Part shown: in pieces, positions 6,113 through 55,708 of the stretch
How the letters are laid out: every line of letters starts with the position of its first letter
Numbering within the stretch: the stretch's first letter is position 1
Source: Escherichia coli
GTDB taxonomy: Bacteria > Pseudomonadota > Gammaproteobacteria > Enterobacterales > Enterobacteriaceae
Length of the DNA stretch: 64,000 nt
Reading direction: 5' to 3' (one strand)
Assembly: GCF_050920415.1 (NCBI RefSeq)
Contig: NZ_CP169309.1
The notes under the pieces: model-generated
What the model was told of the DNA's origin: nothing
Database searches by the model: none
Seen by the model: the letters and a program-made list of their open reading frames with translations, nothing else
Position numbers and translations under genes: made by a program

Positions 6113-6145
6113 CGCTTACCCTGAATATTCAGGGTAAGCGGTTTT
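6113..6145 (+). terminator. Rho-independent terminator downstream of maeB
   Basis: Perfect palindrome cgcttaccctgaa tattcagggtaagcg followed by gtttt, 17 bp after the maeB stop. Confidence 0.7.
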
Positions 6146-6387: not shown

Positions 6388-6723
6388 ATGGATAAAGAAC
6401 GCATCATTCAGGAATTTGTGCCCGGCAAACAGGTCACACTGGCGCATCTCATTGCGCATCCCGGCGAAGAACTGGCGAAGAAAATCGGCGTTCCGGATGC
6501 GGGCGCAATCGGCATTATGACGCTAACTCCCGGCGAAACGGCGATGATCGCCGGTGATTTAGCACTGAAAGCTGCCGATGTGCATATCGGTTTCCTCGAC
6601 CGTTTTAGCGGCGCACTAGTGATTTATGGCTCGGTGGGCGCAGTAGAAGAAGCGTTATCACAAACCGTCAGTGGTTTAGGTCGTTTATTAAATTATACGC
6701 TTTGTGAAATGACCAAAAGTTAA
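6388..6723 (+). CDS. eutS: Ethanolamine utilisation microcompartment shell protein EutS
   Basis: ORF 6316..6723 trimmed to ATG 6388 ([15 protein letters not shown]...), 111 aa BMC-domain protein; first gene of the eut operon. Confidence 0.9.
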
Positions 6724-6735
6724 TACGAGGCATTC

Positions 6736-7215
6736 ATGAAACGAATTGCGTTTGTGGGTACCGTCGGGGCAGGAAAAACAACGTTATTTAATGCGTTGCA
6801 GGGGAATTATACCCTCGCCAGAAAAACACAGGCCGTGGAATTTAATGATAAGGGTGATATTGATACGCCGGGTGAATATTTTAGCCATCCCCGCTGGTAT
6901 CACGCCTTAATTACCACGCTACAGGATGTGGACATGCTGATTTATGTCCACGGCGCGAATGACCCGGAAAGCCGATTGCCTGCCGGGTTGCTGGATATTG
7001 GTGCCAGCAAACGGCAAATCGCCGTCATCAGTAAAACGGACATGCCGGATGCTGACGTCGCAGCAACGCGAAAGTTATTGCTTGAAACTGGTTTTGAAGA
7101 GCCGATTTTCGAGCTAAACAGCCACGACCCGCAAAGCGTGCAGCAACTGGTGGATTATCTGGCATCTCTCACCGAACAGGAGGAAGCAGGTGAAAAAACT
7201 CATCACAGCGAATGA
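6736..7215 (+). CDS. eutP: Ethanolamine utilisation protein EutP (P-loop GTPase-like)
   Basis: 159 aa, Walker A motif GTVGAGKTT near the N-terminus. Confidence 0.9.
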   Translation: MKRIAFVGTVGAGKTTLFNALQGNYTLARKTQAVEFNDKGDIDTPGEYFSHPRWYHALITTLQDVDMLIYVHGANDPESRLPAGLLDIGASKRQIAVISKTDMPDADVAATRKLLLETGFEEPIFELNSHDPQSVQQLVDYLASLTEQEEAGEKTHHSE

Positions 7216-7891
7216 TATTCGTGAAGCACATGCGCGCGGCGAACAGGCAATGTCTGTGGTTCTGCGCGCCAGCATTATTACCCCGGAAGCCCGCGAAGTG
7301 GCGGACTTGCTGGGGTTTACCATCACCGAATGCACTGAATCGACGCCAGTAGCGGCATCTGTTCCCGTCAGCGTGCCTGCCGATAAAACTGAAAGCCAGC
7401 GTATCCGCGAAACCATCATCGCCCAGCTGCCGGAAGGCCAGTTTACCGAAAGCCTGGTCGCGCAGCTGATGGAAAAAGTGATAAAGGAAAAACAGTCGCT
7501 GGAGCAGGGTGCAATGCAGCCGAGTTTTAAATCGGTGACCGGCAAAGGCGGCATCAAAGTTATTGATGGCAGCAGCGTGAAGTTTGGTCGTTTCGATGGC
7601 GCGGAACCGCACTGCGTAGGCTTGACTGATCTCGTGACCGGAGACGACGGCAGCAGCATGGCCGCCGGTTTTATGCAGTGGGAGAACGCCTTCTTCCCGT
7701 GGACCCTGAACTACGACGAAATCGACATGGTACTGGAAGGGGAGCTTCATGTTCGCCATGAAGGCGAAACCATGATCGCTAAAGCAGGCGACGTGATGTT
7801 TATCCCGAAAGGTTCCAGCATCGAATTTGGTACGACATCCAGCGTGAAATTCCTGTATGTCGCCTGGCCGGCTAACTGGCAATCCCTATGA
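7190..7891 (+). CDS. eutQ: Ethanolamine utilisation protein EutQ (cupin-fold)
   Basis: 233 aa, MKKLITANDIREAHARGEQ...; overlaps eutP by 26 nt; operon position. Confidence 0.9.
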   Translation: MKKLITANDIREAHARGEQAMSVVLRASIITPEAREVADLLGFTITECTESTPVAASVPVSVPADKTESQRIRETIIAQLPEGQFTESLVAQLMEKVIKEKQSLEQGAMQPSFKSVTGKGGIKVIDGSSVKFGRFDGAEPHCVGLTDLVTGDDGSSMAAGFMQWENAFFPWTLNYDEIDMVLEGELHVRHEGETMIAKAGDVMFIPKGSSIEFGTTSSVKFLYVAWPANWQSL

Positions 7892-8691
7892 AAGATTTCA
7901 TCACCGAAGCATGGCTAAGAGCGAACCATACGCTCAGCGAAGGCGCAGAGATCCATCTCCCTGCGGACAGTCGCCTGACGCCCTCTGCCCGGGAGTTACT
8001 GGAAAGCCGCCATCTGCGCATCAAGTTTATTGACGAGCAGGGCCGCCTGTTTGTTGACGATGAACAGCAGCAGCTACAGCCCGTTCACGTGCTGACCAGT
8101 AGTGATGAACATCCGCAGGCGTGCTGCGAACTGTGTCACCAGCCAGTGGCGAAAAAGCCGGACACGCTGACTCACCTGTCGGCGGAAAAAATGGTCGCCA
8201 AAAGCGATCCGCGCCTGGGTTTTCGCGCTGTTCTCGACAGCACCATTGCGCTGGTAGTGTGGCTGCAAATTGAACTGACAGAACCGTGGCAGCCGTGGCT
8301 GGCGGACATCCGTTCGCGTCTTGGCAACATTATGCGTGCCGATGTGTTGGGCGAACCGCTGGGCTGCCAGGCGATTGTCGGGTTTTCTGACGAAGATCTG
8401 CATCGACTTTCTCACCAGCCACTGCGTTATCTCGACCACGATCATCTGGTGCCGGAAGCCAGCCACGGGCGCGATGCGGCGTTGCTGAATCTGCTACGCA
8501 CCAAAGTGCGGGAAACCGAAACCGTCGCGGCGCAGGTGTTTATTACCCGTAGTTTTGAAGTATTACGCCCGGACATCTTGCAGGCGCTGAACCGCCTTTC
8601 CAGCACGGTTTACGTGATGATGATTTTGAGCGTAACGAAGCAGCCGCTAACGGTGAAGCAGATCCAACAACGACTGGGGGAAACGCAATGA
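7888..8691 (+). CDS. eutT: Ethanolamine utilisation cobalamin adenosyltransferase EutT
   Basis: 267 aa; 4-nt overlap with eutQ; operon position. Confidence 0.9.
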
Positions 8692-9704
8692 TTATTGAAC
8701 GTTGTCGTGAACTGGCGTTGCGAGCGCCCGCCAGAGTGGTTTTTCCTGATGCGTTAGACCAACGCGTGCTGAAAGCCGCGCAATATCTGTATCAACAAAG
8801 TCTGGCGACGCCCGTTCTTATCGCCAATCCGTTTGAACTTCGCCAGTTTGCGCTCAGCCACGGCGTGGCGATGGACGGGCTACTGGTGATTGATCCTCGT
8901 AGCAACCTCGCAATGCGGGAAGAATTTGCTGACCGCTGGCAGGCCCGTGCGGGAGATAAAACGCCGTCGGATGCGCTGGAAAAACTTACCGATCCACTAA
9001 TGTTCGCCGCTGCGATGGTTAGCGCTGGTAAAGCGGATGTCTGTATTGCAGGCAACCTCTCTTCAACGGCAAATGTACTACGTGCCGGATTACGCGTTAT
9101 CGGCTTGCAGCCTGGCTGTAAAACGCTCTCCTCCATTTTCCTGATGCTGCCACAGTACAGCGGTCCAGCATTGGGCTTTGCCGATTGCAGCGTAGTGCCA
9201 CAGCCGACGGCGGCGCAGTTGGCGGATATCGCGCTTGCCAGCGCCGAAACCTGGCGAGCCATCACCGGAGAAGAGCCGCGCGTGGCGATGTTGTCGTTTT
9301 CCAGTAACGGCAGCGCCCGTCACCCCTGCGTTGCCAACGTGCAGCAAGCGACAGAAATCGTCCGTGAGCGCGCACCAAAGCTGGTCGTCGATGGCGAGTT
9401 GCAGTTTGACGCCGCCTTTGTGCCGGAAGTGGCGGCGCAAAAAGCGCCAGCCAGCCCGCTACAAGGCAAAGCCAATGTGATGGTTTTTCCGTCGCTGGAG
9501 GCGGGAAATATTGGCTACAAAATCGCACAACGACTTGGCGGATATCGTGCCGTCGGGCCATTGATACAAGGACTTGCCGCGCCGATGCACGATCTCTCTC
9601 GTGGTTGTAGCGTGCAGGAAATTATCGAGCTGGCGCTGGTGGCAGCCGTGCCGCGTCAGACAAAAGTGAACCGCGAAAGCAGTTTACAAACACTGGTTGA
9701 ATGA
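8688..9704 (+). CDS. eutD: Phosphotransacetylase EutD
   Basis: 338 aa PTA-family protein; 4-nt overlap with eutT. Confidence 0.9.
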
Positions 9705-9742
9705 ACGGTCCCGTTCTGGACCCCTATAAAGAGGAAAACACA

Positions 9743-10036
9743 ATGGAAGCATTAGGAATGATCGAAACCCGGGGCCTGGTTGCACTGATTGAGGCTTCTG
9801 ATGCGATGGTGAAAGCTGCGCGCGTCAAACTGGTTGGTGTTAAGCAGATTGGCGGCGGCCTGTGTACTGCCATGGTTCGCGGTGATGTTGCAGCCTGTAA
9901 AGCCGCGACCGATGCCGGTGCCGCAGCGGCACAGCGTATCGGTGAACTGGTATCCGTACATGTTATTCCGCGTCCGCACGGCGATCTGGAAGAGGTCTTC
10001 CCGATCGGCCTGAAAGGCGATAGCAGCAACCTGTAA
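9743..10036 (+). CDS. eutM: Microcompartment major shell protein EutM (BMC domain)
   Basis: ORF 9701..10036 trimmed to ATG 9743, which sits behind the RBS aaagaggaaa; [28 protein letters not shown]..., 97 aa. Confidence 0.9.
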
Positions 10037-10142
10037 TCACCCTGTGTGACGTCGATTCGGGCGTCACGCTCTCTCCTTTTTCAGTTTACCTTCCGCGGAG
10101 GGTAGGGGGAGCTTTTACCTGAAATACGCCACGGAGGCGGGT

Positions 10143-10430
10143 ATGAAACTGGCAGTCGTCACTGGACAAATTGTTTGTACCGTACGCCATCACGGACTGG
10201 CGCATGACAAATTGCTGATGGTGGAAATGATTGATCCACAAGGTAATCCTGACGGGCAATGCGCCGTCGCCATCGACAATATTGGCGCGGGAACCGGGGA
10301 GTGGGTGTTGCTGGTGAGTGGCAGTTCCGCCCGCCAGGCGCATAAAAGCGAAACGTCACCGGTCGATCTGTGCGTGATTGGCATCGTCGATGAGGTGGTC
10401 TCTGGCGGTCAGGTAATTTTCCACAAATAA
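10143..10430 (+). CDS. eutN: Microcompartment vertex protein EutN
   Basis: 95 aa, MKLAVVTGQIVCTVRHHGL...; EutN/CcmL-family pattern. Confidence 0.9.
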   Translation: MKLAVVTGQIVCTVRHHGLAHDKLLMVEMIDPQGNPDGQCAVAIDNIGAGTGEWVLLVSGSSARQAHKSETSPVDLCVIGIVDEVVSGGQVIFHK

Positions 10431-10441
10431 GGCAGAACATC

Positions 10442-11845
10442 ATGAATCAACAGGATATTGAACAGGTGGTGAAAGCGGTACTGCTGAAAATGCAAAGCAG
10501 TGACACGTCGCCCGCCGCCGTTCATGAGATGGGCGTTTTTGCTTCCCTGGATGACGCTGTTGCGGCAGCCAAAATTGCCCAGCAAGGGTTAAAAAGCGTG
10601 GCAATGCGCCAGTTAGCCATTGCTGCCATTCGTGAAGCAGGCGAAAAACACGCCAGAGATTTAGCGGAACTTGCCGTCAGTGAAACGGGTATGAGCCGCG
10701 TAGAAGATAAATTTGCCAAAAACGTCGCTCAGGCACGCGGTACGCCAGGCGTTGAGTGCCTCTCTCCACAGGTGCTGACCGGTGACAACGGCCTGACTTT
10801 AATTGAAAACGCGCCCTGGGGCGTGGTGGCTTCGGTGACGCCTTCCACTAACCCGGCGGCAACCGTAATTAATAACGCCATCAGCCTGATTGCCGCGGGC
10901 AACAGCGTCATTTTTGCCCCGCATCCGGCGGCGAAAAAAGTCTCTCAACGGGCTATTACGTTGCTCAACCAGGCGATTGTTGCCGCAGGCGGGCCGGAAA
11001 ACTTACTGGTTACTGTGGCAAATCCAGATATCGAAACCGCGCAACGTTTGTTCAAGTTCCCGGGTATCGGCCTGCTGGTGGTGACCGGCGGCGAAGCGGT
11101 AGTGGAAGCGGCGCGCAAACACACCAATAAACGTCTGATTGCCGCAGGTGCTGGCAACCCGCCGGTGGTGGTGGATGAAACCGCCGACCTCGCCCGTGCC
11201 GCTCAGTCTATCGTCAAAGGCGCTTCTTTCGATAACAACATCATTTGTGCCGATGAAAAGGTACTGATTGTTGTTGATAGCGTAGCCGATGAACTGATGC
11301 GTCTGATGGAAGGCCAGCACGCGGTGAAACTGACCGCAGAACAGGCGCAGCGACTGCAACCGGTGTTGCTGAAAAATATCGACGAGCGCGGAAAAGGCAC
11401 CGTCAGCCGTGACTGGGTGGGTCGCGATGCGGCGAAAATCGCGGCGGCAATCGGCCTGAACGTGCCGCAAGAAACGCGCTTGCTGTTTGTAGAAACCCCC
11501 GCAGAACATCCGTTTGCCGTGACCGAACTGATGATGCCAGTGCTGCCGGTCGTGCGCGTCGCCAACGTGGCGGATGCCATTGCGCTGGCGGTGAAACTGG
11601 AAGGCGGTTGCCACCACACGGCGGCAATGCACTCGCGCAATATCGAGAACATGAACCAAATGGCGAACGCCATTGATACCAGTATTTTCGTTAAGAACGG
11701 ACCGTGCATTGCCGGGCTGGGGCTGGGCGGGGAAGGCTGGACCACGATGACCATCACTACGCCAACCGGTGAAGGGGTAACCAGCGCGCGTACGTTTGTC
11801 CGTCTGCGTCGCTGTGTATTAGTCGATGCGTTTCGCATTGTTTAA
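10442..11845 (+). CDS. eutE: Acetaldehyde dehydrogenase (acetylating) EutE
   Basis: 467 aa aldehyde dehydrogenase-family protein; operon position. Confidence 0.92.
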   Translation: MNQQDIEQVVKAVLLKMQSSDTSPAAVHEMGVFASLDDAVAAAKIAQQGLKSVAMRQLAIAAIREAGEKHARDLAELAVSETGMSRVEDKFAKNVAQARGTPGVECLSPQVLTGDNGLTLIENAPWGVVASVTPSTNPAATVINNAISLIAAGNSVIFAPHPAAKKVSQRAITLLNQAIVAAGGPENLLVTVANPDIETAQRLFKFPGIGLLVVTGGEAVVEAARKHTNKRLIAAGAGNPPVVVDETADLARAAQSIVKGASFDNNIICADEKVLIVVDSVADELMRLMEGQHAVKLTAEQAQRLQPVLLKNIDERGKGTVSRDWVGRDAAKIAAAIGLNVPQETRLLFVETPAEHPFAVTELMMPVLPVVRVANVADAIALAVKLEGGCHHTAAMHSRNIENMNQMANAIDTSIFVKNGPCIAGLGLGGEGWTTMTITTPTGEGVTSARTFVRLRRCVLVDAFRIV

Positions 11846-11855
11846 GGAGTAACCG

Positions 11856-12692
11856 ATGGCGCACGACGAACAATGGCTTACCCCGCGGCTGCAAACGGCG
11901 GCAACGCTGTGTAACCAGACGCCCGCCGCGTCGGAATCTCCGCTGTGGCTGGGGGTAGATCTGGGCACCTGCGATGTGGTGTCGATGGTTGTCGACTGCG
12001 ACGGTCAGCCGGTGGCGGTATGTCTCGACTGGGCCGATGTGGTCCGCGACGGCATCGTCTGGGATTTCTTCGGTGCTGTCACCATTGTTCGTCGCCATCT
12101 CGATACCCTTGAGCAGCAATTTGGTCGCCGTTTTAGCCATGCGGCGACCTCATTTCCTCCTGGTACGGACCCGCGTATTTCCATCAACGTGCTGGAGTCT
12201 GCCGGGCTGGAAGTGAGCCATGTGCTTGATGAGCCAACCGCAGTCGCGGATCTACTGCAACTGGACAACGCCGGTGTAGTGGATATTGGCGGCGGCACTA
12301 CCGGAATTGCCATCGTGAAAAAGGGCAAGGTGACTTATTCAGCGGATGAAGCGACCGGCGGACATCACATTTCTCTGACTCTCGCCGGAAATCGCCGTAT
12401 TTCGCTGGAAGAGGCAGAGCAGTACAAGCGCGGTCACGGTGACGAGATTTGGCCTGCGGTGAAGCCGGTGTACGAAAAAATGGCGGACATTGTTGCCCGG
12501 CATATTGAAGGGGAGGGCATTACTGATTTATGGCTGGCGGGCGGCTCTTGTATGCAACCGGGCGTGGCGGAACTGTTTCGCAAACAATTCCCGGCGTTAC
12601 AGGTGCATTTACCGCAGCACAGTTTGTTTATGACCCCGCTGGCGATCGCCAGTAGCGGGCGAGAGAAAGCGGAGGGGCTATATGCAAAATGA
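11856..12692 (+). CDS. eutJ: Ethanolamine utilisation chaperone-like protein EutJ (actin/Hsp70-fold ATPase)
   Basis: 278 aa; DLGTCDVV and DIGGGTTGIA phosphate-binding motifs. Confidence 0.9.
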   Translation: MAHDEQWLTPRLQTAATLCNQTPAASESPLWLGVDLGTCDVVSMVVDCDGQPVAVCLDWADVVRDGIVWDFFGAVTIVRRHLDTLEQQFGRRFSHAATSFPPGTDPRISINVLESAGLEVSHVLDEPTAVADLLQLDNAGVVDIGGGTTGIAIVKKGKVTYSADEATGGHHISLTLAGNRRISLEEAEQYKRGHGDEIWPAVKPVYEKMADIVARHIEGEGITDLWLAGGSCMQPGVAELFRKQFPALQVHLPQHSLFMTPLAIASSGREKAEGLYAK

Positions 12693-13869
12693 ATTGCAGA
12701 CCGCGCTCTTTCAGGCGTTCGATACCCTGAATCTGCAACGGGTAAAAACATTTAGCGTTCCACCGGTGACGCTTTGCGGTCCGGGCGCGGTGAGCAGTTG
12801 TGGGCAGCAAGCGCAAACGCGTGGGCTGAAACATCTGTTCGTGATGGCAGACAGCTTTTTGCATCAGGCGGGGATGACCGCCGGGCTGACGCGCAGTCTG
12901 GCAGTAAAAGGCATCGCCATGACGCTCTGGCCGTGTCCGGTGGGCGAACCGTGCATCACTGACGTGTGTGCAGCCGTGGCGCAGTTGCGTGAATCAGGCT
13001 GTGATGGGGTGATCGCGTTTGGCGGTGGCTCGGTGCTGGATGCGGCAAAAGCCGTGGCGTTGCTGGTAACGAATCCCGATAGCACGCTGGCAGAAATGTC
13101 AGAAACCAGCGTTCTGCAACCGCGCCTGCCGTTGATTGCCATTCCAACTACCGCCGGAACCGGCTCTGAAACCACCAATGTAACGGTGATTATCGACGCG
13201 GTGAGCGGGCGCAAGCAGGTGTTAGCACATGCCTCGTTGATGCCGGATGTGGCGATTCTCGACGCCGCGCTGACCGAAGGTGTGCCGTCGCATGTCACGG
13301 CAATGACCGGTATCGACGCGTTAACTCATGCTATTGAAGCGTACAGCGCGCTGAACGCTACACCGTTTACAGACAGCCTGGCGATTGGCGCAATTGCGAT
13401 GATTGGTAAATCACTGCCGAAAGCAGTGGGCTACGGTCATGACCTTGCCGCGCGCGAGAGTATGTTGCTCGCATCATGCATGGCGGGAATGGCATTTTCC
13501 AGTGCCGGACTTGGGTTATGTCACGCGATGGCGCATCAGCCGGGGGCGGCGCTGCATATTCCGCACGGACTGGCGAACGCCATGCTGCTGCCCACGGTGA
13601 TGGAGTTTAACCGGATGGTCTGTCGCGAACGGTTTAGTCAGATTGGTCGGGCGCTGCGAACTAAAAAATCCGACGATCGTGATGCTATTAACGCGGTAAG
13701 TGAGCTGATTGCGGAAGTCGGGATTGGTAAACGGCTGGGCGATGTTGGCGCGACATCTGCGCATTACGGTGCATGGGCGCAGGCTGCGCAGGACGATATT
13801 TGTCTGCGTAGCAACCCGCGTACTGCCAGCCTGGAGCAGATCGTCGGCCTGTACGCGGCGGCGCAATAA
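12682..13869 (+). CDS. eutG: Iron-containing alcohol dehydrogenase EutG
   Basis: 395 aa; GGGSVLDAAKA motif typical of Fe-ADH. Confidence 0.9.
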   Translation: MQNELQTALFQAFDTLNLQRVKTFSVPPVTLCGPGAVSSCGQQAQTRGLKHLFVMADSFLHQAGMTAGLTRSLAVKGIAMTLWPCPVGEPCITDVCAAVAQLRESGCDGVIAFGGGSVLDAAKAVALLVTNPDSTLAEMSETSVLQPRLPLIAIPTTAGTGSETTNVTVIIDAVSGRKQVLAHASLMPDVAILDAALTEGVPSHVTAMTGIDALTHAIEAYSALNATPFTDSLAIGAIAMIGKSLPKAVGYGHDLAARESMLLASCMAGMAFSSAGLGLCHAMAHQPGAALHIPHGLANAMLLPTVMEFNRMVCRERFSQIGRALRTKKSDDRDAINAVSELIAEVGIGKRLGDVGATSAHYGAWAQAAQDDICLRSNPRTASLEQIVGLYAAAQ

Positions 13870-13870
13870 A

Positions 13871-14057
<187 letters not shown>

Positions 14058-14085
14058 AAATAACAACTAACAGGGAGTAAAGGCG

Positions 14086-15312
14086 ATGGGAATTAACGAA
14101 ATCATCATGTACATCATGATGTTCTTTATGCTGATAGCTGCCGTGGACAGGATCCTGTCGCAGTTCGGCGGTTCTGCTCGTTTCCTCGGTAAGTTCGGTA
14201 AAAGTATCGAAGGATCCGGCGGCCAGTTCGAAGAAGGCTTTATGGCAATGGGCGCACTGGGCCTGGCGATGGTCGGTATGACCGCACTGGCACCAGTTCT
14301 GGCCCACGTACTTGGGCCGGTGATTATCCCGGTTTACGAAATGCTCGGTGCTAACCCATCGATGTTCGCCGGAACACTGCTGGCGTGCGACATGGGCGGC
14401 TTCTTCCTCGCGAAAGAGCTGGCGGGCGGCGATGTGGCAGCGTGGCTATACTCTGGGTTAATTCTCGGATCGATGATGGGGCCAACGATTGTGTTTTCCA
14501 TTCCGGTGGCGCTCGGCATTATCGAACCTTCTGACCGTCGTTATCTGGCGCTCGGCGTGCTGGCGGGCATTGTGACCATTCCAATTGGCTGTATCGCTGG
14601 AGGTCTGGTAGCTATGTATTCCGGTGTGCAGATCAACGGGCAGCCGGTGGAATTCACCTTTGCGCTTATCCTGATGAATATGATCCCGGTACTTATCGTC
14701 GCGGTGCTGGTGGCGCTGGGGCTGAAATTCATCCCGGAAAAAATGATCAACGGCTTCCAGATCTTCGCCAAATTCCTCGTTGCATTGATCACCCTCGGTC
14801 TTGCCGCTGCGGTAGTGAAATTCCTCCTTGGCTGGGAACTGATCCCCGGTCTGGATCCGATCTTCATGGCTCCAGGCGACAAACCCGGTGAAGTGATGCG
14901 CGCCATTGAAGTTATCGGTTCTATCTCCTGCGTTCTGTTAGGGGCGTATCCGATGGTGCTGCTGCTGACACGCTGGTTTGAAAAACCGCTGATGAGCGTC
15001 GGTAAAGTGCTGAATATGAACAATATCGCGGCAGCCGGCATGGTGGCAACGCTTGCCAACAACATCCCGATGTTTGGCATGATGAAGCAGATGGATACCC
15101 GCGGCAAAGTCATCAACTGTGCCTTCGCCGTTTCCGCTGCTTTCGCCCTGGGTGACCACTTAGGCTTCGCCGCTGCCAACATGAACGCCATGATCTTCCC
15201 GATGATTGTCGGCAAGTTGATCGGCGGCGTAACGGCGATTGGCGTGGCGATGATGCTGGTGCCAAAAGAAGACGCGACCGCGGCTAAAACCGAAGCGGAG
15301 GCACAATCGTGA
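14086..15312 (+). CDS. eutH: Ethanolamine permease EutH
   Basis: 408 aa polytopic membrane protein; operon position. Confidence 0.9.
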   Translation: MGINEIIMYIMMFFMLIAAVDRILSQFGGSARFLGKFGKSIEGSGGQFEEGFMAMGALGLAMVGMTALAPVLAHVLGPVIIPVYEMLGANPSMFAGTLLACDMGGFFLAKELAGGDVAAWLYSGLILGSMMGPTIVFSIPVALGIIEPSDRRYLALGVLAGIVTIPIGCIAGGLVAMYSGVQINGQPVEFTFALILMNMIPVLIVAVLVALGLKFIPEKMINGFQIFAKFLVALITLGLAAAVVKFLLGWELIPGLDPIFMAPGDKPGEVMRAIEVIGSISCVLLGAYPMVLLLTRWFEKPLMSVGKVLNMNNIAAAGMVATLANNIPMFGMMKQMDTRGKVINCAFAVSAAFALGDHLGFAAANMNAMIFPMIVGKLIGGVTAIGVAMMLVPKEDATAAKTEAEAQS

Positions 15313-16712
15313 ACACTCGCCAGCTACTGAGCGTCGGTATCGATATCGGCACTACCACCACCCAGGTGATCTTCTCCCACCTGGAGCTGGTTAACCGTGC
15401 GGCGGTGTCGCAGGTGCCGCGCTACGAATTCATCAAACGCGAAATTAGCTGGCAAAGCCCGGTGTTCTTTACCCCTGTCGATAAACAGGGCGGTTTAAAA
15501 GAAGAGGAACTGAAATCCTTAATCCTCGAGCAATATCAGGCTGCGGGCATTGCGCCGGAAAGTGTGGATTCCGGTGCCATCATCATCACCGGCGAAAGCG
15601 CGAAAACCCGCAATGCTCGCCCGGCGGTGATGACGCTCTCTCAGTCGCTGGGCGATTTTGTCGTTGCCAGCGCTGGGCCGCATCTCGAATCCGTGATCGC
15701 CGGTCACGGTGCCGGGGCGCAAACCCTTTCTGAACAACGGTTATGTCGGGTACTGAATATCGACATCGGCGGTGGCACCGCGAACTACGCTTTGTTCGAT
15801 GCCGGAAAAATCAGCGGCACTGCCTGCCTTAACGTCGGCGGCCGCCTGCTGGAAACCGACAGCCAGGGACGCGTGGTTTACGCTCATATACCGGGGCAGA
15901 TGATTGTGGATGAGTGCTTCGGTGCAGGCACTGACGCCTGTTCACTGACCGGCGCGCAGCTGGTGCAGGTTACCCGGCGGATGGCGGAACTGATTGTCGA
16001 AGTGATTGACGGAACGCTCTCGCCGCTCGCGCAGGCATTGATGCAAACCGGTTTGCTGCCCGCAGGTGTTACGCCCGAAATCATTACGCTTTCTGGCGGC
16101 GTGGGCGAATGTTATCGCCACCAGCCCGCTGACCCGTTCTGTTTTGCCGATATTGGCCCGCTTCTGGCAACGGCGCTGCATGAGCATCCTCGTCTGCGTG
16201 AGATGAACGTGCAGTTTCCAGCGCAAACCGTGCGCGCCACGGTGATTGGCGCAGGCGCACATACCCTTTCGCTCTCTGGCAGCACAATCTGGCTGGAGGG
16301 GGTACAACTGCCGCTGCGCAATTTGCCGGTGGCGATCCCAATTGATGAAACGGATCTGGTGAGTGCCTGGCAACAAGCGCTAATTCAACTGGATCTTTGC
16401 CCCAAAACTGACGCGTACGTGCTGGCGCTTCCCGCCTCGCTGCCTGTGCGTTACGCCGCGGTACTGACGGTCATCAACGCGCTGGTCGATTTCGTCGCGC
16501 GTTTTCCGAATCCGCATCCCCTGCTGGTGGTGGCCGGGCAGGACTTTGGTAAAGCTCTGGGCATGTTGTTGCGTCCACAGCTACAACAACTCCCGTTGGC
16601 AGTCATTGACGAAGTGATTGTCCGCGCGGGGGACTATATCGACATTGGTACGCCTCTTTTTGGCGGATCGGTTGTGCCGGTGACGGTGAAATCACTCGCA
16701 TTTCCTTCCTGA
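15309..16712 (+). CDS. eutA: Ethanolamine ammonia-lyase reactivase EutA
   Basis: 467 aa; 4-nt overlap with eutH. Confidence 0.9.
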   Translation: MNTRQLLSVGIDIGTTTTQVIFSHLELVNRAAVSQVPRYEFIKREISWQSPVFFTPVDKQGGLKEEELKSLILEQYQAAGIAPESVDSGAIIITGESAKTRNARPAVMTLSQSLGDFVVASAGPHLESVIAGHGAGAQTLSEQRLCRVLNIDIGGGTANYALFDAGKISGTACLNVGGRLLETDSQGRVVYAHIPGQMIVDECFGAGTDACSLTGAQLVQVTRRMAELIVEVIDGTLSPLAQALMQTGLLPAGVTPEIITLSGGVGECYRHQPADPFCFADIGPLLATALHEHPRLREMNVQFPAQTVRATVIGAGAHTLSLSGSTIWLEGVQLPLRNLPVAIPIDETDLVSAWQQALIQLDLCPKTDAYVLALPASLPVRYAAVLTVINALVDFVARFPNPHPLLVVAGQDFGKALGMLLRPQLQQLPLAVIDEVIVRAGDYIDIGTPLFGGSVVPVTVKSLAFPS

Positions 16713-16723
16713 GGGAACGACTT

Positions 16724-18085
16724 ATGAAACTAAAGACCACATTGTTCGGCAATGTATATCAGTTTAAGGATGTAAAAGAGGTGCTGGCTAAAGCCAACGA
16801 ACTGCGTTCGGGGGATGTGCTGGCGGGCGTTGCAGCGGCAAGCTCACAGGAGCGCGTGGCGGCAAAGCAGGTGTTGTCGGAAATGACCGTAGCGGACATC
16901 CGCAATAATCCGGTGATTGCCTATGAAGATGACTGCGTTACGCGGTTGATTCAGGACGACGTTAACGAAACGGCATACAACCAGATTAAAAACTGGAGCA
17001 TCAGCGAACTGCGTGAGTATGTGCTGAGTGATGAAACCAGCGTTGACGACATTGCTTTTACCCGCAAAGGGCTGACCTCGGAAGTGGTCGCGGCGGTAGC
17101 GAAGATTTGCTCTAACGCGGACCTGATCTACGGCGCGAAGAAAATGCCGGTAATCAAAAAGGCCAATACAACTATTGGTATTCCGGGCACCTTCAGCGCC
17201 CGTTTGCAGCCAAACGATACCCGCGACGACGTGCAAAGTATCGCCGCGCAAATCTACGAAGGGCTTTCTTTCGGGGTGGGCGATGCGGTGATCGGCGTTA
17301 ACCCGGTGACTGACGACGTGGAAAACTTAAGCCGCGTGCTGGATACCATCTATGGCGTGATCGACAAATTCAACATTCCGACCCAGGGCTGCGTGCTGGC
17401 GCACGTTACTACCCAGATTGAAGCGATCCGTCGCGGCGCGCCGGGCGGGCTGATTTTCCAGAGCATCTGCGGCAGCGAAAAAGGGCTGAAAGAATTTGGC
17501 GTGGAGCTGGCGATGCTCGATGAAGCACGCGCAGTGGGCGCAGAGTTTAACCGTATCGCCGGGGAAAACTGCCTCTACTTCGAAACCGGGCAGGGTTCTG
17601 CGCTATCGGCGGGCGCTAACTTCGGTGCAGATCAGGTAACGATGGAAGCGCGTAACTACGGGCTGGCACGTCATTACGATCCGTTTATCGTCAACACCGT
17701 AGTGGGCTTTATTGGGCCAGAGTATCTCTACAACGACCGGCAGATTATCCGTGCGGGCTTAGAAGATCACTTTATGGGCAAACTGAGCGGCATTTCTATG
17801 GGCTGTGACTGCTGCTACACCAACCACGCTGACGCTGACCAGAACCTCAACGAAAACCTGATGATCCTGCTCGCCACCGCAGGCTGTAACTACATCATGG
17901 GGATGCCGCTGGGTGATGACATCATGCTCAACTACCAGACTACGGCCTTCCACGACACCGCCACTGTGCGTCAGTTACTCAACCTGCGCCCGTCACCGGA
18001 GTTTGAACGCTGGCTGGAAAGCATGGGCATTATGGCAAACGGTCGCCTGACCAAACGGGCGGGCGATCCGTCACTGTTCTTCTGA
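16724..18085 (+). CDS. eutB: Ethanolamine ammonia-lyase heavy chain EutB
   Basis: 453 aa; starts 12 bp after the eutA stop. Confidence 0.93.
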   Translation: MKLKTTLFGNVYQFKDVKEVLAKANELRSGDVLAGVAAASSQERVAAKQVLSEMTVADIRNNPVIAYEDDCVTRLIQDDVNETAYNQIKNWSISELREYVLSDETSVDDIAFTRKGLTSEVVAAVAKICSNADLIYGAKKMPVIKKANTTIGIPGTFSARLQPNDTRDDVQSIAAQIYEGLSFGVGDAVIGVNPVTDDVENLSRVLDTIYGVIDKFNIPTQGCVLAHVTTQIEAIRRGAPGGLIFQSICGSEKGLKEFGVELAMLDEARAVGAEFNRIAGENCLYFETGQGSALSAGANFGADQVTMEARNYGLARHYDPFIVNTVVGFIGPEYLYNDRQIIRAGLEDHFMGKLSGISMGCDCCYTNHADADQNLNENLMILLATAGCNYIMGMPLGDDIMLNYQTTAFHDTATVRQLLNLRPSPEFERWLESMGIMANGRLTKRAGDPSLFF

Positions 18086-18105
18086 TGACGCGGAGATAAC
18101 ACATC

Positions 18106-18993
18106 ATGGATCAAAAACAGATTGAAGAAATTGTACGCAGCGTGATGGCGTCAATGGGACAAGCGGCCCCCGCGCCGTCAGAAGCAAAATGCGCCACTAC
18201 CACCTGTGCAGCACCGGTGACCTCGGAAAGCTGCGCGCTGGATTTAGGTTCCGCAGAAGCAAAAGCGTGGATTGGCGTTGAAAACCCGCATCGCGCAGAC
18301 GTATTAACAGAACTGCGCCGCAGCACCGTGGCTCGCGTCTGTACCGGTCGTGCCGGTCCGCGTCCGCGTACCCAGGCGTTGCTGCGTTTCCTGGCCGATC
18401 ACTCTCGTTCGAAAGACACCGTACTGAAAGAAGTGCCGGAGGAGTGGGTGAAAGCGCAGGGCTTGCTGGAAGTCCGCTCTGAAATTAGCGACAAAAATCT
18501 CTATCTGACTCGCCCGGATATGGGCCGCCGCTTGTGTGCAGAGGCTGTTGAAGCGCTGAAAGCGCAGTGTGTTGCCAATCCGGACGTACAGGTGGTTATT
18601 TCCGATGGTCTATCTACTGATGCGATCACCGTGAACTATGAAGAGATTCTGCCACCGCTGATGGCGGGCCTGAAACAGGCCGGGTTGAAAGTCGGCACAC
18701 CGTTCTTTGTGCGTTACGGTCGCGTGAAGATTGAAGATCAGATTGGCGAACTTCTTGGCGCGAAAGTGGTGATCCTGCTGGTGGGTGAACGTCCGGGGTT
18801 GGGGCAGTCAGAAAGTCTCTCCTGCTACGCCGTTTACTTGCCGCGTATGGCAACCACCGTTGAGGCCGACCGTACCTGTATCTCTAACATTCACCAGGGC
18901 GGCACGCCGCCGGTTGAAGCCGCAGCCGTCATTGTGGATTTGGCGAAACGTATGCTGGAGCAGAAAGCATCCGGCATCAACATGACCCGATAA
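18106..18993 (+). CDS. eutC: Ethanolamine ammonia-lyase light chain EutC
   Basis: 295 aa; operon position. Confidence 0.92.
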
Positions 18994-19002
18994 GGAGGCA
19001 TC

Positions 19003-19662
19003 ATGCCAGCTTTAGATTTGATTCGACCGTCGGTAACCGCCATGCGGGTGATTGCCTCTGTTAACGCCGAATTTGCGCGTGAACTGAAATTGCCGCCGCA
19101 TATTCGTAGCCTCGGGCTGATTTCTGCTGATTCCGATGACGTCACCTACATTGCGGCTGACGAAGCGACCAAGCAGGCGATGGTTGAAGTCGTGTATGGT
19201 CGCTCGCTGTATGCGGGAGCTGCACACGGGCCGTCACCGACTGCCGGTGAAGTGCTGATTATGCTCGGGGGGCCAAACCCGGCGGAAGTGCGTGCCGGTC
19301 TGGATGCGATGGTTGCGCATATTGAAAATGGCGCTGCTTTCCAGTGGGCTAATGATGCAGAAAACACAGCCTTCCTGGCGCATGTCGTTTCGCGTACCGG
19401 CTCTTATCTCTCATCAACCGCCGGGATCACGCTTGGCGATCCGCTGGCGTATCTGGTGGCACCGCCGCTGGAAGCGACCTACGGCATTGATGCAGCGTTG
19501 AAATCTGCCGACGTGCAGCTGGTGACCTATGTCCCGCCACCGTCTGAAACCAACTACTCGGCAGCATTTTTAACCGGTAGCCAGGCCGCGTGTAAAGCAG
19601 CCTGTAACGCCTTTACCGATGCAGTGCTGGAAATCGCGCGTAATCCAATCCAGCGTGCGTAA
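19003..19662 (+). CDS. eutL: Microcompartment shell protein EutL (tandem BMC domains)
   Basis: 219 aa; operon position. Confidence 0.9.
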
Positions 19663-19674
19663 CGGAGGTTGCCG

Positions 19675-20175
19675 ATGATCAATGCACTGGGATTGCTGGA
19701 AGTGGACGGCATGGTCGCCGCGATAGATGCAGCTGATGCCATGCTCAAAGCAGCTAACGTTCGTCTGCTCAGTCACGAAGTGCTTGACCCTGGTCGCCTA
19801 ACGCTGGTGGTGGAAGGCGATCTGGCGGCGTGTCGTGCGGCGCTGGACGCAGGTTGTGCTGCCGCGATGCGTACCGGGCGTGTCATCAGCCGTAAGGAGA
19901 TCGGTCGGCCAGACGATGACACCCAGTGGCTGGTTACTGGCTTTAACCGCCAACCGAAGCAACCCGTAAAGGAACCCGACGCGCCAGTTATCGTCGCGGA
20001 ATCTGCTGACGAGTTGTTGGCGCTGTTAACATCAGTACGTCAGGGAATGACGGCAGGAGAAGTGGCTGCCCACTTTGGCTGGCCGCTGGAAAAAGCCAGA
20101 AATGCGCTCGAACAGCTCTTTTCTGCCGGGACGTTACGTAAACGCAGTAGTCGTTATCGTCTCAAGCCCCATTAA
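19675..20175 (+). CDS. eutK: Microcompartment shell protein EutK
   Basis: ORF 19669 (TTG) trimmed to ATG 19675 behind a ggagg RBS; MINALGLLEVDGMVAAIDAADAM..., 166 aa. Confidence 0.88.
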   Translation: MINALGLLEVDGMVAAIDAADAMLKAANVRLLSHEVLDPGRLTLVVEGDLAACRAALDAGCAAAMRTGRVISRKEIGRPDDDTQWLVTGFNRQPKQPVKEPDAPVIVAESADELLALLTSVRQGMTAGEVAAHFGWPLEKARNALEQLFSAGTLRKRSSRYRLKPH

Positions 20176-20220
20176 CCTGTCGGAGGTGCCGGGTGTCCTA
20201 CAACACCCGGCATTAACATC

Positions 20221-21273
20221 ATGAAAAAGACCCGTACAGCCAATTTGCACCATCTTTATCATGAACCCTTACCCGAAAACCTGAAGCTCACGCCGAAGGT
20301 CGAAGTGGATAATGTTCATCAACGACAGACAACGGATGTCTATGAACATGCTTTGACGATTACCGCCTGGCAGCAGATTTACGATCAGCTGCATCCGGGC
20401 AAGTTTCATGGTGAATTTACGGAAATTCTACTCGATGATATTCAGGTTTTTCGTGAATACACCGGTCTGGCGCTGCGTCAGTCGTGCCTGGTCTGGCCGA
20501 ACTCGTTCTGGTTTGGCATTCCGGCGACGCGCGGTGAGCAGGGATTTATCGGTTCGCAATGTCTGGGAAGCGCAGAAATTGCGACACGCCCTGGAGGAAC
20601 CGAGTTTGAATTAAGTACGCCGGACGATTACACGATCCTTGGCGTGGTGCTTTCTGAAGATGTCATCACCCGTCAGGCTAACTTTTTGCATAACCCGGAA
20701 AGGGTGCTGCATATGTTACGTAACCAGTCGGCGCTGGAAGTGAAAGAGCAGCATAAAGCCGCGCTGTGGGGCTTTGTCCAACAGGCTCTGGCGACATTTT
20801 GCGAGAACCCGGAAAATCTCCATCAGCCTGCAGTGCGAAAAGTGCTGGGGGATAATTTGCTAATGGCGATGGGGGCGATGCTGGAAGAAGCGCAGCCAAT
20901 GGTGACGGCGGAAAGTATCAGCCACCAGAGTTACCGTCGCTTGTTGACCCGCGCGCGTGAATATGTGCTGGAGAATATGTCCGAACCGGTAACCGTGCTG
21001 GATTTGTGCAATCAACTGCATGTCAGCCGCCGCACGCTACAAAACGCGTTTCACGCTCTTTTAGGCATTGGCCCAAACGCGTGGCTGAAACGCATTCGCC
21101 TGAACGCCGTGCGCCGCGAACTGATAAGCCCGTGGTCGCAAAGTACAACGGTCAAAGATGCCGCCATGCAGTGGGGATTCTGGCATCTGGGGCAATTCGC
21201 CACGGATTACCAGCAACTGTTTGCCGAGAAGCCGTCTCTGACGCTACATCAGCGGATGCAGGAACTGGAGTGA
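20221..21273 (+). CDS. eutR: AraC-family transcriptional activator of the eut operon, EutR
   Basis: 350 aa; C-terminal AraC-type HTH region; last gene of the operon. Confidence 0.9.
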
Positions 21274-21349: not shown

Positions 21350-21667
21350 TTATTGCCCAACGGGATAGGCGATAAACAAACCGACAATTGTCAGAATACA
21401 CGCCAGCAGGAATACCAACATACAATTTACGCGCTTTCGCGAAATTTTAAATAAATAGCAAAATAGTGTTGTTACCACGATCACTACCGGGATAGTCATA
21501 AAATTAATAACGATGAGTGCTATCAATCCAAAACTTGCTCCTCCACCGTGGGGAATAAAAATGTGTTCTTCAAAATAAACTTCTATAGCAAATGCCAGCA
21601 CACATCCCAGAAAACTCATATCCAGATGAGGGTGCCATTTACTTTCTTTATTTGATGTGTCTGACAT
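21350..21667 (-). CDS. Small hypothetical membrane protein (about 3 predicted TM helices); accessory relative to K-12
   Basis: 105 aa with hydrophobic stretches (LGCVLAFAIEVYF, FGLIALIVINFMTIPVVIVVTTLF, MLVFLLACILTIVGLFI); visibly AT-rich coding sequence; no counterpart recalled between eutR and hemF in K-12. Confidence 0.5.
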   Translation of the reverse strand: MSDTSNKESKWHPHLDMSFLGCVLAFAIEVYFEEHIFIPHGGGASFGLIALIVINFMTIPVVIVVTTLFCYLFKISRKRVNCMLVFLLACILTIVGLFIAYPVGQ

Positions 21668-21707
21668 TCTTAAATGCTCCCGTGAGCAAACTGGCGCAAA
21701 ATAATTT

Positions 21708-22970
21708 CTAAGATTGCTGATAAGACGTCGCTGTTGTCCGGCACTCCGGGCAGATAAACGCGTAAATTATCCCTTCGCCATATTGTTCAATATCGGCATA
21801 ATCCAGTTGCGCAAGAAACATCATTGTGTGGGAACATTGCGGACAGAGAGGATATTCCGCGTCCTGAATCCAGGTTGGATGCCCGCCAAGTTGCGAGAAA
21901 GAGACAGGTAAAAATGGGTCTGCGGCAAATAACGGTGACCTAAGGTTTCCCTGTCTCATGCTGTTTACAGGGAGTCGACGCCATTCCGATACATCATCCG
22001 GCAGCCAGGCAGGCGGGATATTTTTTGCAGACAAATGAGCGTTACCCTTTGAGTCCATGTAGCCGAAAATGGTGCTGTAGGCGGTGCAACATTCGCAAGT
22101 CACGACGCGAAAACTGCCGTTATCGCTAAGACCCGTTGCCTTCAGGTCAACGTCGAAAAGATTTGTTAGGGGCAATGCGCACTTTGGACAGGTATCGCTG
22201 CGTTCATCAACAACACGCAAAGCTTCGCAAGACCCGGTGCTTTTCATCTCCAGATGAAAACATTGAGGAAAATAGAGATTACGCCTTTGATCTTCAGCGG
22301 TTAACTCCCAACCGGCCTCATGCGCATATTCTTCTGGCGCGATGTAAAGTGAACTGCGCCACAGCGGCGGGTTATTGCGCCAGTAGGCAAAACGTTCAAC
22401 AACAACGTCATCCCCAATCCATGCCAGACATTGCAGAATACAATTTCTGTTTTCTGCATCATCCTCAACCCGTTCTAACAGCGTATCGCGAACATCCGCT
22501 GGGGCGCGGTGGAAAGGCAGAGGAGAATAAGCGTCTAAATCATCATAAGAGATCCACTCTCGTAAATATGCATCCAGATTTGCCTGGGTAAACGCCGCCA
22601 GACAAAGACAAATCTCCTGAGCGTGTTCATATTCACCAGACGCAAAGCGTTCTGTGGCGTAATCAGCCATTTGCTGCGCTTGCTCGGCGGTCAACTGTTG
22701 ATACAGGGCATCGGTGGGAACGGGGCAGGGAGTCCAGTCGATTAACGCATCGAATTTCCGCGGTTGGTGAATTAATTTAAGCATGGCAACCGGATCGCTT
22801 AACCCAGCAAACGCATTCACGATCTTTTTGTTTTTCTTGATATATTCGTCGTGCTCACGCTGCTGTTGGGCCTGCTCGCAGGGCATGCAGTATCCGTTAG
22901 TACGCGCTGCGGTTTCCGGAAGAATGGTTGATGTACAAGCGGGGCTTTTACAGGGAATACGGTGAGTCAT
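21708..22970 (-). CDS. Hypothetical Cys-rich protein with DUF1963/YwqG-like C-terminal signature; accessory relative to K-12
   Basis: 420 aa; several CxxC pairs (CMPC, CPKC, CPQC, CPEC); C-terminal GGHPTWIQDAEYPLCPQCSHTMMFLAQLDY...GIIYAFICPEC resembles the DUF1963 family by recollection. Confidence 0.6.
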   Translation of the reverse strand: MTHRIPCKSPACTSTILPETAARTNGYCMPCEQAQQQREHDEYIKKNKKIVNAFAGLSDPVAMLKLIHQPRKFDALIDWTPCPVPTDALYQQLTAEQAQQMADYATERFASGEYEHAQEICLCLAAFTQANLDAYLREWISYDDLDAYSPLPFHRAPADVRDTLLERVEDDAENRNCILQCLAWIGDDVVVERFAYWRNNPPLWRSSLYIAPEEYAHEAGWELTAEDQRRNLYFPQCFHLEMKSTGSCEALRVVDERSDTCPKCALPLTNLFDVDLKATGLSDNGSFRVVTCECCTAYSTIFGYMDSKGNAHLSAKNIPPAWLPDDVSEWRRLPVNSMRQGNLRSPLFAADPFLPVSFSQLGGHPTWIQDAEYPLCPQCSHTMMFLAQLDYADIEQYGEGIIYAFICPECRTTATSYQQS

Positions 22971-23107: not shown

Positions 23108-24010
<903 letters not shown>

Positions 24011-50128: not shown

Positions 50129-50217
50129 AAAGACTCCAGATGATCGATGGTTCTATTGTGCTTCTTCCAGTTTGAGAAATAAAATTGATTTATTGCATCC
50201 ATTCATGAAGAAAACAG

Positions 50218-51144: not shown

Positions 51145-51154
51145 AGTGAATTCA

Positions 51155-51177
51155 TACTGCCGGGAGCTCCGGCAGTA
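51155..51177. other. Perfect 9-bp stem hairpin between convergent yfeR and yfeN (possible terminator lacking a T-run)
   Basis: tactgccgg-gagct-ccggcagta. Confidence 0.4.
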
Positions 51178-51182
51178 ATCAA

Positions 51183-51947: not shown

Positions 51948-52195
51948 AGCATAATTCCCTATGCCGATCGTTATTAGTTGATTGCTTAATAAAAAGGTTG
52001 ATTAAAAGCGGCATATTGTTAATGCAAGGGAAAGGAGAGTACCAATACAGTTTTTTCAGCCTATTAATAGTGAAAAAATATAAATATATCGATATCGAAT
52101 AACTATCGGATACATGAAAAAAGTGTATTGGTATGAGGTAGGGCAATCTCGTTATAAAAAGGCGTTAGATTCCACCCTACAAAAAAAGGATATAT

Positions 52196-53029: not shown

Positions 53030-53089
53030 GTAAAACAACAATAAACGGCCTCACTGAGTGAGGCCATATGATGCGACAAGGAAACGATT

Positions 53090-54346: not shown

Positions 54347-54597
54347 AAGGATTCGCAGCTCTGTTCCTTGGGGCTGCTTTCATGATAAAGGTTAATTAGT
54401 GAAAGATATTTTATTTTCTTCTGGCGTTGGTTTTGGCATTGGTGCTTTGTTTACAATCGTGCGATTACCTATTCCTGTTCCAAATGTATTGCCGGGTATA
54501 TTATCCATCGTGTTTATGTATGTCGGATATCTGGTGGTGAAATACTTTATGCCATGATAATTTAATACGATGTATTTTTTATATGGAGCACTTAATT

Positions 54598-55482: not shown

Positions 55483-55500
55483 ATGAGAGGCACGGGAACT

Positions 55501-55540: not shown

Positions 55541-55552
55541 ATTTCGCAAATT

Positions 55553-55698: not shown

Positions 55699-55708
55699 TT
55701 TGAGTATC

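Follow-up and report, generated by a model that had tools for sequence, protein, structure and literature searches.

An uninterrupted 17-gene eut operon with an unoccupied CPZ-55/IntZ attachment site between eutA and eutB in Escherichia coli

The window, i.e., the whole 64-kb stretch of Escherichia coli DNA that was analyzed, contains 17 collinear open reading frames, eutSPQTDMNEJGHABCLKR, all of them on the + strand at 6388-21273 and located between maeB (3816-6095) and hemF (23108-24007) (Table 1). With the exception of two larger spacers, the gaps between the eut genes range from -26 to +45 nucleotides (nt). The REP/BIME units of the eutG–eutH spacer each hold inverted REP arms, and Rfam naRNA4 matches positions 13924-14005 with 73.4 bits (gathering score, 59.5); this 216-nt spacer and a hairpin 3' of eutM (10044-10069) could modulate read-through or mRNA stability. 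The original prediction, made from the sequence alone, held that all 17 genes are intact and collinear, and the comparison to K-12 confirms this: the check for frameshifts and premature stops revealed none, with every gene equal in length to its K-12 counterpart and free of internal stop codons. In HMM comparisons, all 17 products exceeded the NCBIfam curated cut-offs across their full length. Amino acid (aa) identity to the K-12 counterparts is 96-100%; EutS, EutB, EutM and EutN are the proteins that are 100% identical, several others differ by 2-4%, and missense differences reach about 4% in EutD, EutP and EutL. For the near-identical genome NZ_CP169399.1, which has 3 mismatches to the window in 27 kb, PGAP also calls all 17 eut genes intact.

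Table 1. Features of the eut region, with positions given in the window
Feature	Positions	Strand	Evidence and remarks
eutS, BMC shell protein, 111 aa	6388-6723	+	NF012012, 247 bits (cut-off 123), full length; 100% aa identity to K-12
eutP, 159 aa	6736-7215	+	NF012011, 350 bits (cut-off 258); K-12 length
eutQ, 233 aa, GTG start	7190-7891	+	NF012001, 496 bits (cut-off 193)
eutT, corrinoid adenosyltransferase, 267 aa	7888-8691	+	NF011595, 562 bits (cut-off 226)
eutD, phosphotransacetylase, 338 aa	8688-9704	+	NF007233, 407 bits (cut-off 310)
eutM, major shell protein, 97 aa	9743-10036	+	NF012018, 213 bits (cut-off 133); 100% aa identity to K-12
eutN, vertex protein, 95 aa	10143-10430	+	NF011992, 210 bits (cut-off 118)
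eutE, acetaldehyde dehydrogenase, 467 aa	10442-11845	+	NF011927, 734 bits (cut-off 403)
eutJ, 278 aa	11856-12692	+	NF011660, 399 bits (cut-off 182)
eutG, alcohol dehydrogenase, 395 aa	12682-13869	+	NF011998, 890 bits (cut-off 556)
Two tandem 100-nt REP/BIME units, eutG–eutH spacer	13868-14057	.	Direct repeat 2 x 90 nt, 93% identity
eutH, ethanolamine permease, 408 aa	14086-15312	+	NF011665, 873 bits (cut-off 574)
eutA, EAL reactivase, 467 aa, GTG start	15309-16712	+	NF007991, 1063 bits (cut-off 799); 97.4% aa identity to K-12
Nearly invariant block of ~200 nt across genera	16620-16822	+	Last 31 eutA codons, spacer, first 33 eutB codons
Empty attB of CPZ-55/IntZ-type islands, single 8-bp core CTTCCTGA	16705-16712	+	Overlaps eutA stop codon
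eutA–eutB spacer GGGAACGACTT	16713-16723	+	11 nt, read from the window sequence
eutB, EAL large subunit, 453 aa	16724-18085	+	NF011649, 665 bits (cut-off 554); 100% aa identity to K-12
eutC, EAL small subunit, 295 aa	18106-18993	+	NF003971, 338 bits (cut-off 230)
eutL, shell protein, 219 aa	19003-19662	+	NF011934, 402 bits (cut-off 198)
eutK, shell protein, 166 aa	19675-20175	+	NF012010, 362 bits (cut-off 218)
eutR, AraC-type activator, 350 aa	20221-21273	+	NF007522, 782 bits (cut-off 319)

At the eutA–eutB junction, the eutA stop codon TGA (16710-16712) is separated by a gap of 11 nt from the ATG of eutB at 16724. The two genes are directly adjacent, as predicted, and the predicted distance of 12 bp agrees with one way of counting, because the eutB ATG is the 12th base past the eutA stop. 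Together with the GA of the stop codon, the spacer forms a Shine-Dalgarno-like GAGGGA for eutB. No terminator-like site was found on the + strand at the junction, and a sigma-70 scan detected no promoter-like site there. The alignment to K-12 bore out the claim that CPZ-55 lies between eutA and eutB in that strain: the 6.8-kb CPZ-55 directly follows eutA there and is bounded by a copy of the core at either end, whereas the window holds a single core and lacks the island. The 8-bp duplication flanking CPZ-55 has been given on the other strand as TCAGGAAG (PMC6379469), and in the K-12 strain JW5503, yffL-yffS and intZ lie between eutA and eutB. Because the window has one copy of CTTCCTGA, the attachment site is empty, i.e., the eutA–eutB junction is the unoccupied attB of CPZ-55/IntZ-type integrative islands. 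Neither CPZ-55 DNA (blastn) nor an IntZ homologue (tblastn) was found anywhere in the 64-kb window.

The K-12 MG1655/BW25113 eut locus is like the window in its orthologous eut genes, their identical lengths and the core itself, and differs from it by about 6.8 kb of DNA (intZ, yffL-yffS) and the second copy of the core. The eutA–eutB site is a prophage-insertion hot spot (PMC6652756), at which we found at least three different cargos behind IntZ-like integrases. The ‘novel prophage’ of UPEC U71 (PMC6652756) and the gadC/murI-like island of KMi012/102651 share the insertion point directly 3' of eutA; the strains in question have different cargo and IS elements, and some have lost eutBCLK or the 3' end of eutA. 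The window shows no such features.

Among 5426 complete E. coli genomes, eutA and eutB are contiguous in 4964; an intZ–eutB junction was detected in 408 and a K-12-type left junction in 288. Among ten representative public contigs, a protein identical to EutB adjoins eutA in eight and an integrase in two. E. coli Nissle 1917 and UPEC strains are listed as having an uninterrupted eut operon, and the same applies to the W3110 stock of PMC11334477. The uninterrupted operon is the E. coli norm, at about nine in ten genomes, and K-12 with its prophage is the exception; this arrangement, the hot spot and the result of prophage removal from K-12 are already known. Outside E. coli, the succession of eutA stop, 11 nt and eutB ATG is present in all 35 species representatives fetched (Citrobacter, Klebsiella, Salmonella, Pluralibacter, Yokenella, Pseudocitrobacter, Intestinirhabdus and other Escherichia, among others) and in 4 of 4 more divergent metagenomic loci; the spacer sequence is identical in 33 of the 35, the remaining two deviating only outside the spacer. 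Since all 35 representatives share the 11-nt spacer, the description of this unoccupied arrangement as ancestral is supported, along with the counts from E. coli and the divergent loci.

It should be noted that excision by tyrosine recombinases leaves no scar. A site emptied secondarily, through precise integrase-mediated loss of an earlier IntZ-type island and scarless restoration of attB, would thus leave nothing in the sequence to tell it apart, and the site is a recurrent target. However, the nearest relatives (MFDS1022581 and N96) and all outgroup species are empty as well, the window holds no island remnant or integrase, and parsimony favors a site that was never occupied; we consider secondary emptying extremely improbable.

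Only one of the 5426 E. coli genomes matches the eut region at 99% or higher, which first suggested a divergent import; the relatives (N96, 2013C-4282 and others) match the window in a mosaic fashion, at 96-100% identity. At the nucleotide level, identity to K-12 is about 95%. We rejected a divergent import of the eut region because the whole window, and not eut alone, is about 93-97% identical to K-12. On its sequence, the strain appears to belong to a divergent E. coli lineage with few sequenced relatives. The 17-gene eut operon of Salmonella enterica and E. coli (the EUT1 locus; Kofoid et al. 1999) has the same genes, order, maeB and hemF flanks and 11-nt spacer, with eutR likewise last. 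The window differs from it by a 1.8-kb insertion between eutR and hemF that carries two genes, one for a DUF1963 protein and the other for a small membrane protein, and that is present in only 28 of the 5426 E. coli genomes.

The window very probably carries the standard ancestral 17-gene eut operon with an unoccupied CPZ-55/IntZ site, and ethanolamine use is expected when vitamin B12 is available. The proposed scheme starts from the standard enterobacterial operon between maeB and hemF in its uninterrupted state, which CPZ-55/IntZ islands enter through site-specific recombination, using the 8-bp core that overlaps the eutA stop. Because nothing lies between eutA and eutB, transcripts initiated at the promoter 5' of eutS could continue through to eutBCLKR, and translation of eutB would be driven by a weak Shine-Dalgarno-like sequence of its own in the spacer, near terminating eutA ribosomes. 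Given an uninterrupted operon, the strain is expected to use ethanolamine in the presence of vitamin B12. From the sequence, we infer that a functional single-transcript operon, including its co-transcription, expression and growth phenotype, is a reasonable expectation. In K-12 BW25113, scarless removal of CPZ-55 restores ethanolamine use, so that ethanolamine again serves as a nitrogen source for growth (PMC11334477), whereas in BW25113 with CPZ-55, eutB is not induced and microcompartments are not formed (PMC7617246). By analogy only with these two studies, EutR-mediated induction by ethanolamine plus adenosylcobalamin, and growth on ethanolamine, would be predicted for the strain of the window. 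In the model organism, a second, weak promoter for eutR is reported (PMC7617246), and eut is thus not one transcription unit in the strict sense.

A simple sigma-70 scan upstream of eutS yielded no consensus promoter, as expected for an activator-dependent promoter. An operon that is intact in sequence could still be silent or non-functional, owing to a defect in the eutS promoter or in EutR, or to a deleterious missense change, and the nucleotide identity of the window to K-12 of about 95%, with the 2-4% divergence of several Eut proteins, leaves room for such a change. Conversely, each of the 17 proteins clears its equivalog cut-off by a wide margin and across its full length, and the identity of four of them to K-12 also speaks against loss of function. 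Conservation between genera is about 0.89-0.98 at codon positions 1+2 and about 0.55-0.68 at position 3, which fits purifying selection. A silent operon is, in our estimate, highly unlikely.

The junction lies within a block that is nearly invariant across genera. Third-codon positions in 24 non-Escherichia sequences vary at 24 of 63 sites within the block and at 300 of 333 beyond its limits (Fisher p = 3.6e-18), i.e., synonymous sites are nearly frozen among genera that are otherwise 81-87% identical. A core at approximately 16672-16770 persists in still more divergent loci. An operon-wide scan identified this block as the strongest conserved one in the eut operon, and the integration hot spot is at its center. 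Raised conservation was also seen at the starts of all eut genes. According to Eyre-Walker and Bulmer in 1993, synonymous change is reportedly reduced in general at enterobacterial gene starts; since the eut genes fit this trend, the block may be its extreme case.

Alternatively, the block could be a discrete cis-acting element, for example, an extended translation-initiation/coupling region of eutB, an mRNA processing/stability determinant or an internal promoter, such that an island insertion would abolish its integrity and not just transcriptional continuity. The near-frozen synonymous sites, unmatched elsewhere in the operon, and the smaller core kept in more divergent loci are consistent with this possibility, as is proteomics in which EutB is abundant and EutA is not among the quantified proteins quoted in the source. 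The searches for such an element point the other way. The block was rejected as a structured RNA: its minimum free energy is unremarkable next to that of shuffled controls (+ strand, z = -0.35; - strand, z = -1.33), RNAalifold gave a covariation term of about 0, and there is no Rfam match. Two double changes in the predicted pairs do occur, but both come from one pair of related sequences, and the base pairs concerned are disrupted in others. Rfam 15 over 16300-17100 gave only a chance-level snoRNA match (E = 2.4), and the whole-window Rfam scan produced no match at gathering score at the block. Selection for an open translation-initiation region was likewise discarded, accessibility of the start region showing a weak, non-significant tendency (85th percentile of 1000 synonymous recodings). 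The scan found no internal sigma-70 promoter in the block. Together with the raised conservation at all eut gene starts, these results make a discrete element possible but doubtful.

Two further candidates were set aside. ORFs in alternative frames do not extend across the block; the longest of them, on the minus strand, encodes 49 aa, begins with TTG and lacks a Shine-Dalgarno sequence. Homogenization of the flanks by island-mediated transfer is unlikely because the block boundaries are alike in all genera and the 8-bp core is all that the K-12 island has in common with the site. A sigma-54-like string, TGGC-N7-TTGT, was noticed by eye only at approximately 16661-16675. Our literature search on an internal eutB promoter or on conserved synonymous sites at eutA/eutB yielded no relevant report.

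A more specific proposal is that the block is a distinct, undescribed cis-regulatory RNA-level determinant of EutB/EutC, acting in translation initiation/coupling or in processing/stability, that its conservation explains the choice of attB by the IntZ family, and that island insertion inactivates the operon partly by splitting this element and not solely through the 6.8 kb of DNA that it introduces in the opposite orientation. We regard this proposal as rather unlikely. If the block were regulatory, it would add an extra post-transcriptional layer of eut control in Enterobacteriaceae and would provide a reason for integrative islands choosing the eutA–eutB site; the synonymously frozen block is the one point that might repay more work. 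As for the intact operon, it means that gut and urinary-tract E. coli can use host-derived ethanolamine; the CPZ-55-carrying K-12 is the exception, which is relevant to any use of K-12 as reference strain or metabolic model. The strain of the window should be annotated as eut+, as for most E. coli, with no wider meaning attached.

On the + strand, the eutA-eutB junction reads ...GCATTTCCTTCCTGA GGGAACGACTT ATGAAACTAAAG..., where the TGA closing the 467-codon eutA ORF and the ATG opening the 453-codon eutB ORF are separated by an 11-nt spacer. The two genes are directly adjacent, as claimed in the original prediction, and the distance of 12 bp given there holds with the ATG counted as the 12th base past the stop. 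The ORF map contains 17 consecutive + strand eut genes, with maeB on one side and hemF on the other. A 1-kb junction query found a 100% match in one complete genome, E. coli MFDS1022581 (NZ_CP169399.1), with 3 mismatches to the window in 27 kb; the PGAP gene calls in that genome are eutS, P, Q, T, pta (= eutD), M, N, E, J, G, H, A, B, C, L, K, and R, none of which carries a pseudogene flag. The prediction of 17 intact, collinear genes is correct because all the ORFs are equal in length to their K-12 orthologues and free of internal stops, and all 17 proteins exceed the curated NCBIfam cut-off of their own Eut family with end-to-end coverage. Amino acid identity to K-12 is 96.2-100%, with EutS, EutM, EutN, and EutB being 100% identical.

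Coordinates of features in the window
Feature	Position	Strand	Remark
maeB	3816-6095		ORF map
Terminator-like hairpin	6113-6140		strong; 3' of maeB
Lesser synonymous-conservation block	9600-9802		eutD 3' end/eutM 5' end
Hairpin	10044-10069		directly 3' of eutM
REP/BIME units	13868-14057		eutG-eutH spacer
naRNA4 matches (Rfam)	13924-14005		eutG-eutH spacer
Lesser synonymous-conservation block	14086-14172		eutH 5' end
Near-invariant block	~16620-16822		core ~16672-16770
Predicted weak hairpin	16701-16707/16711-16717		paired arms
attB core CTTCCTGA	16705-16712		overlaps eutA stop
eutA stop (TGA)	16710-16712	+	
eutB start (ATG)	16724	+	
Lesser synonymous-conservation block	18023-18085		eutB 3' end, toward eutC
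Two-gene insertion	21350-22970	-	between eutR and hemF
hemF	23108-24007	-	ORF map
RtT sRNA	55593-55718		
Type VI secretion island	~55760-64000		adjoins RtT sRNA

The K-12 strain used for comparison, JW5503 (a BW25113 derivative), has in this place eutA, a 41-codon hypothetical ORF, yffS, R, Q, P, O, N, M, L, intZ, and eutB, with all ORFs from the hypothetical one to intZ on the opposite strand; this agrees with the predicted location of the cryptic prophage CPZ-55. Its left junction is ...TTTCCTTCCTGA/ATGCGG... and its right junction ...CGATT/CTTCCTGA/GGGAACGACTTATG, so that the prophage is bordered by two copies of CTTCCTGA (positions 12506 and 19296 of the K-12 locus), an 8-bp duplication that was reported by Ramisetty and Sudhakari (PMC6379469) as its opposite-strand sequence, TCAGGAAG. 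Whereas the K-12 locus has the island and two cores, the window has a single core over the eutA stop and no island; therefore, the junction is an empty attB. Neither CPZ-55 DNA nor a homologue of its integrase IntZ was found anywhere in the 64-kb window, in line with the claim that the site is unoccupied.

A degenerate pattern covering the first 16 eutB codons, run against one genome per GTDB species, yielded 35 loci, from Citrobacter spp., Klebsiella spp., Salmonella enterica subsp. arizonae, Pluralibacter, Pseudocitrobacter, Yokenella, Intestinirhabdus, E. whittamii, and two unnamed Escherichia species. The eutA stop, 11-nt spacer, and eutB ATG were present in 35/35 of these loci, and the same layout was found in 4/4 more divergent metagenomic loci (EutA 76-80% identical). 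Therefore, as predicted, the uninterrupted state is ancestral and the K-12 state is derived. Loss of an earlier island by precise excision, leaving the site empty, is an improbable alternative on grounds of parsimony, as the site is unoccupied in the relatives MFDS1022581 and N96 as well.

Among 5426 complete E. coli genomes, 4964 (91.5%) are contiguous across the junction, 408 have the intZ-eutB right junction, and 288 have the K-12-type left junction; some of the right junctions are only 80-95% identical and therefore represent variant islands. Carriage of CPZ-55 by 8% of 638 genomes has been published (PMC6379469), and the site was already called a prophage-insertion hot spot by Dadswell et al. 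(PMC6652756). Strains KMi012 and 102651 have a gadC-like/murI-like island after eutA, with decarboxylase-pseudogene cargo and several IS elements; KMi012 lacks eutBCLK and 102651 lacks the eutA 3' end, and both are thus genuinely eut-defective. In other strains, a YafO-toxin island and an HTH_17 island lie behind IntZ-like integrases at the same point. Two 792-aa metagenomic proteins (P0093 and P0094) with EutA and EutB Pfam domains, 98% identical to the window EutA, may represent in-frame fusions of the two genes, or else artefacts of assembly or of a frameshift at the junction.

The gaps between successive eut genes are 12, -26, -4, -4, 38, 106, 11, 10, -11, 216, -4, 11, 20, 9, 12, and 45 nt, and no + strand terminator-like site was found at the eutA-eutB junction. 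By analogy with the Salmonella/E. coli model, as set out in PMC7617246, transcription would begin at a promoter upstream of eutS, dependent on EutR, ethanolamine, and B12, and would continue through all 17 genes, with eutR also served by a weak second promoter. The same paper reports that in BW25113 with CPZ-55 eutS and eutR were induced, eutB was not, and no microcompartments formed. When the prophage was excised scarlessly from BW25113, ethanolamine use was regained (PMC11334477). Given the intact operon and this experimental support from K-12, the strain should be eut+ if B12 is supplied. Two tandem 100-nt REP/BIME units make up the eutG-eutH spacer; their copy number varies among strains (spacers of 99, 116, 216, 316, and 632 nt in other E. 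coli), and they could influence read-through or the stability of the mRNA within the operon. The 10-bp G+C-rich hairpin between eutM and eutN (106-nt spacer) might stabilise the mRNA or act as an attenuator, favouring high EutM expression.

In the cross-genus alignment, almost all species share the same 45 nt immediately before the eutB ATG, and a near-invariant block covers the last 31 eutA codons, the spacer, and the first 33 eutB codons in Citrobacter, Klebsiella, Salmonella, Pluralibacter, Yokenella, and others; over ±600 nt, these sequences share just 81-87% identity with the window. In 24 non-Escherichia sequences, variation is seen at 24/63 third-codon positions within the block, mostly as singletons, versus 300/333 outside it (Fisher p = 3.6e-18); the search pattern constrained amino acids only, leaving synonymous positions free. 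The core of the block persists in the four more divergent loci. This block is the strongest and best sampled in the operon-wide conservation scan; the three lesser blocks lie in regions covered by few loci (5-22). No paper describing the synonymous-site block at eutA/eutB was found.

A stable RNA structure is not supported as the explanation (z = -0.35 and -1.33; covariation term ~0). No known RNA family, spanning overlapping ORF, or sigma-70 promoter was found at the block, and unusual openness of the eutB start region is a weak trend only, ranking at the 85th percentile among 1000 synonymous recodings. A reduction of synonymous change near the starts of enterobacterial genes has been reported (Eyre-Walker and Bulmer, 1993), and the most economical reading is that the block is an extreme case of this reduction; it may be no more than a strong instance of a general trend. 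In every eut gene, the initial 60 nt show higher conservation than the gene body. Under the gene-start reading, the role of the block would be to make eutB initiation efficient or coupled. EutB is abundant, its Shine-Dalgarno-like GAGGGA is the weakest in the operon, and a small, weak hairpin is predicted over this sequence and the stop codon. A discrete cis element at the junction seems rather unlikely. Integrases habitually choose invariant host sequence, and the position of the attB core at the centre of the block fits this preference, as a correlation only.

The whole window, including its housekeeping genes, is only ~93-97% identical to K-12. Among the 5426 genomes, close relatives are very few; apart from the nearly identical MFDS1022581, they comprise N96, 2013C-4282, and a few others with a mosaic identity of 96-100%. 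The strain may thus belong to a deep-branching lineage of E. coli, perhaps a cryptic clade. The eutR-hemF insertion, encoding a 420-aa protein whose C-terminus weakly matches DUF1963 and a predicted membrane protein of 105 aa, occurs in only 28/5426 genomes (EPEC E2348/69 among them) and is absent from all outgroup loci; eutR and hemF are 5 nt apart in most E. coli. The type VI secretion island, in the order PAAR, four hypothetical proteins, DUF4123 chaperone, VgrG, and tssF/tssG (annotation of the near-identical genome), occupies the position at which K-12 has a tRNA-Val/Lys cluster and gltX; no tRNA was found in 50000-64000, and the island stretch is common to only one complete genome.

Overall, the adjacency is confirmed and its interpretation supported, and function is what we infer. 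The uninterrupted operon, the empty CPZ-55 site, the ancestral state, and the probable function are already in the literature, and the uninterrupted arrangement applies to approximately 9 in 10 E. coli.
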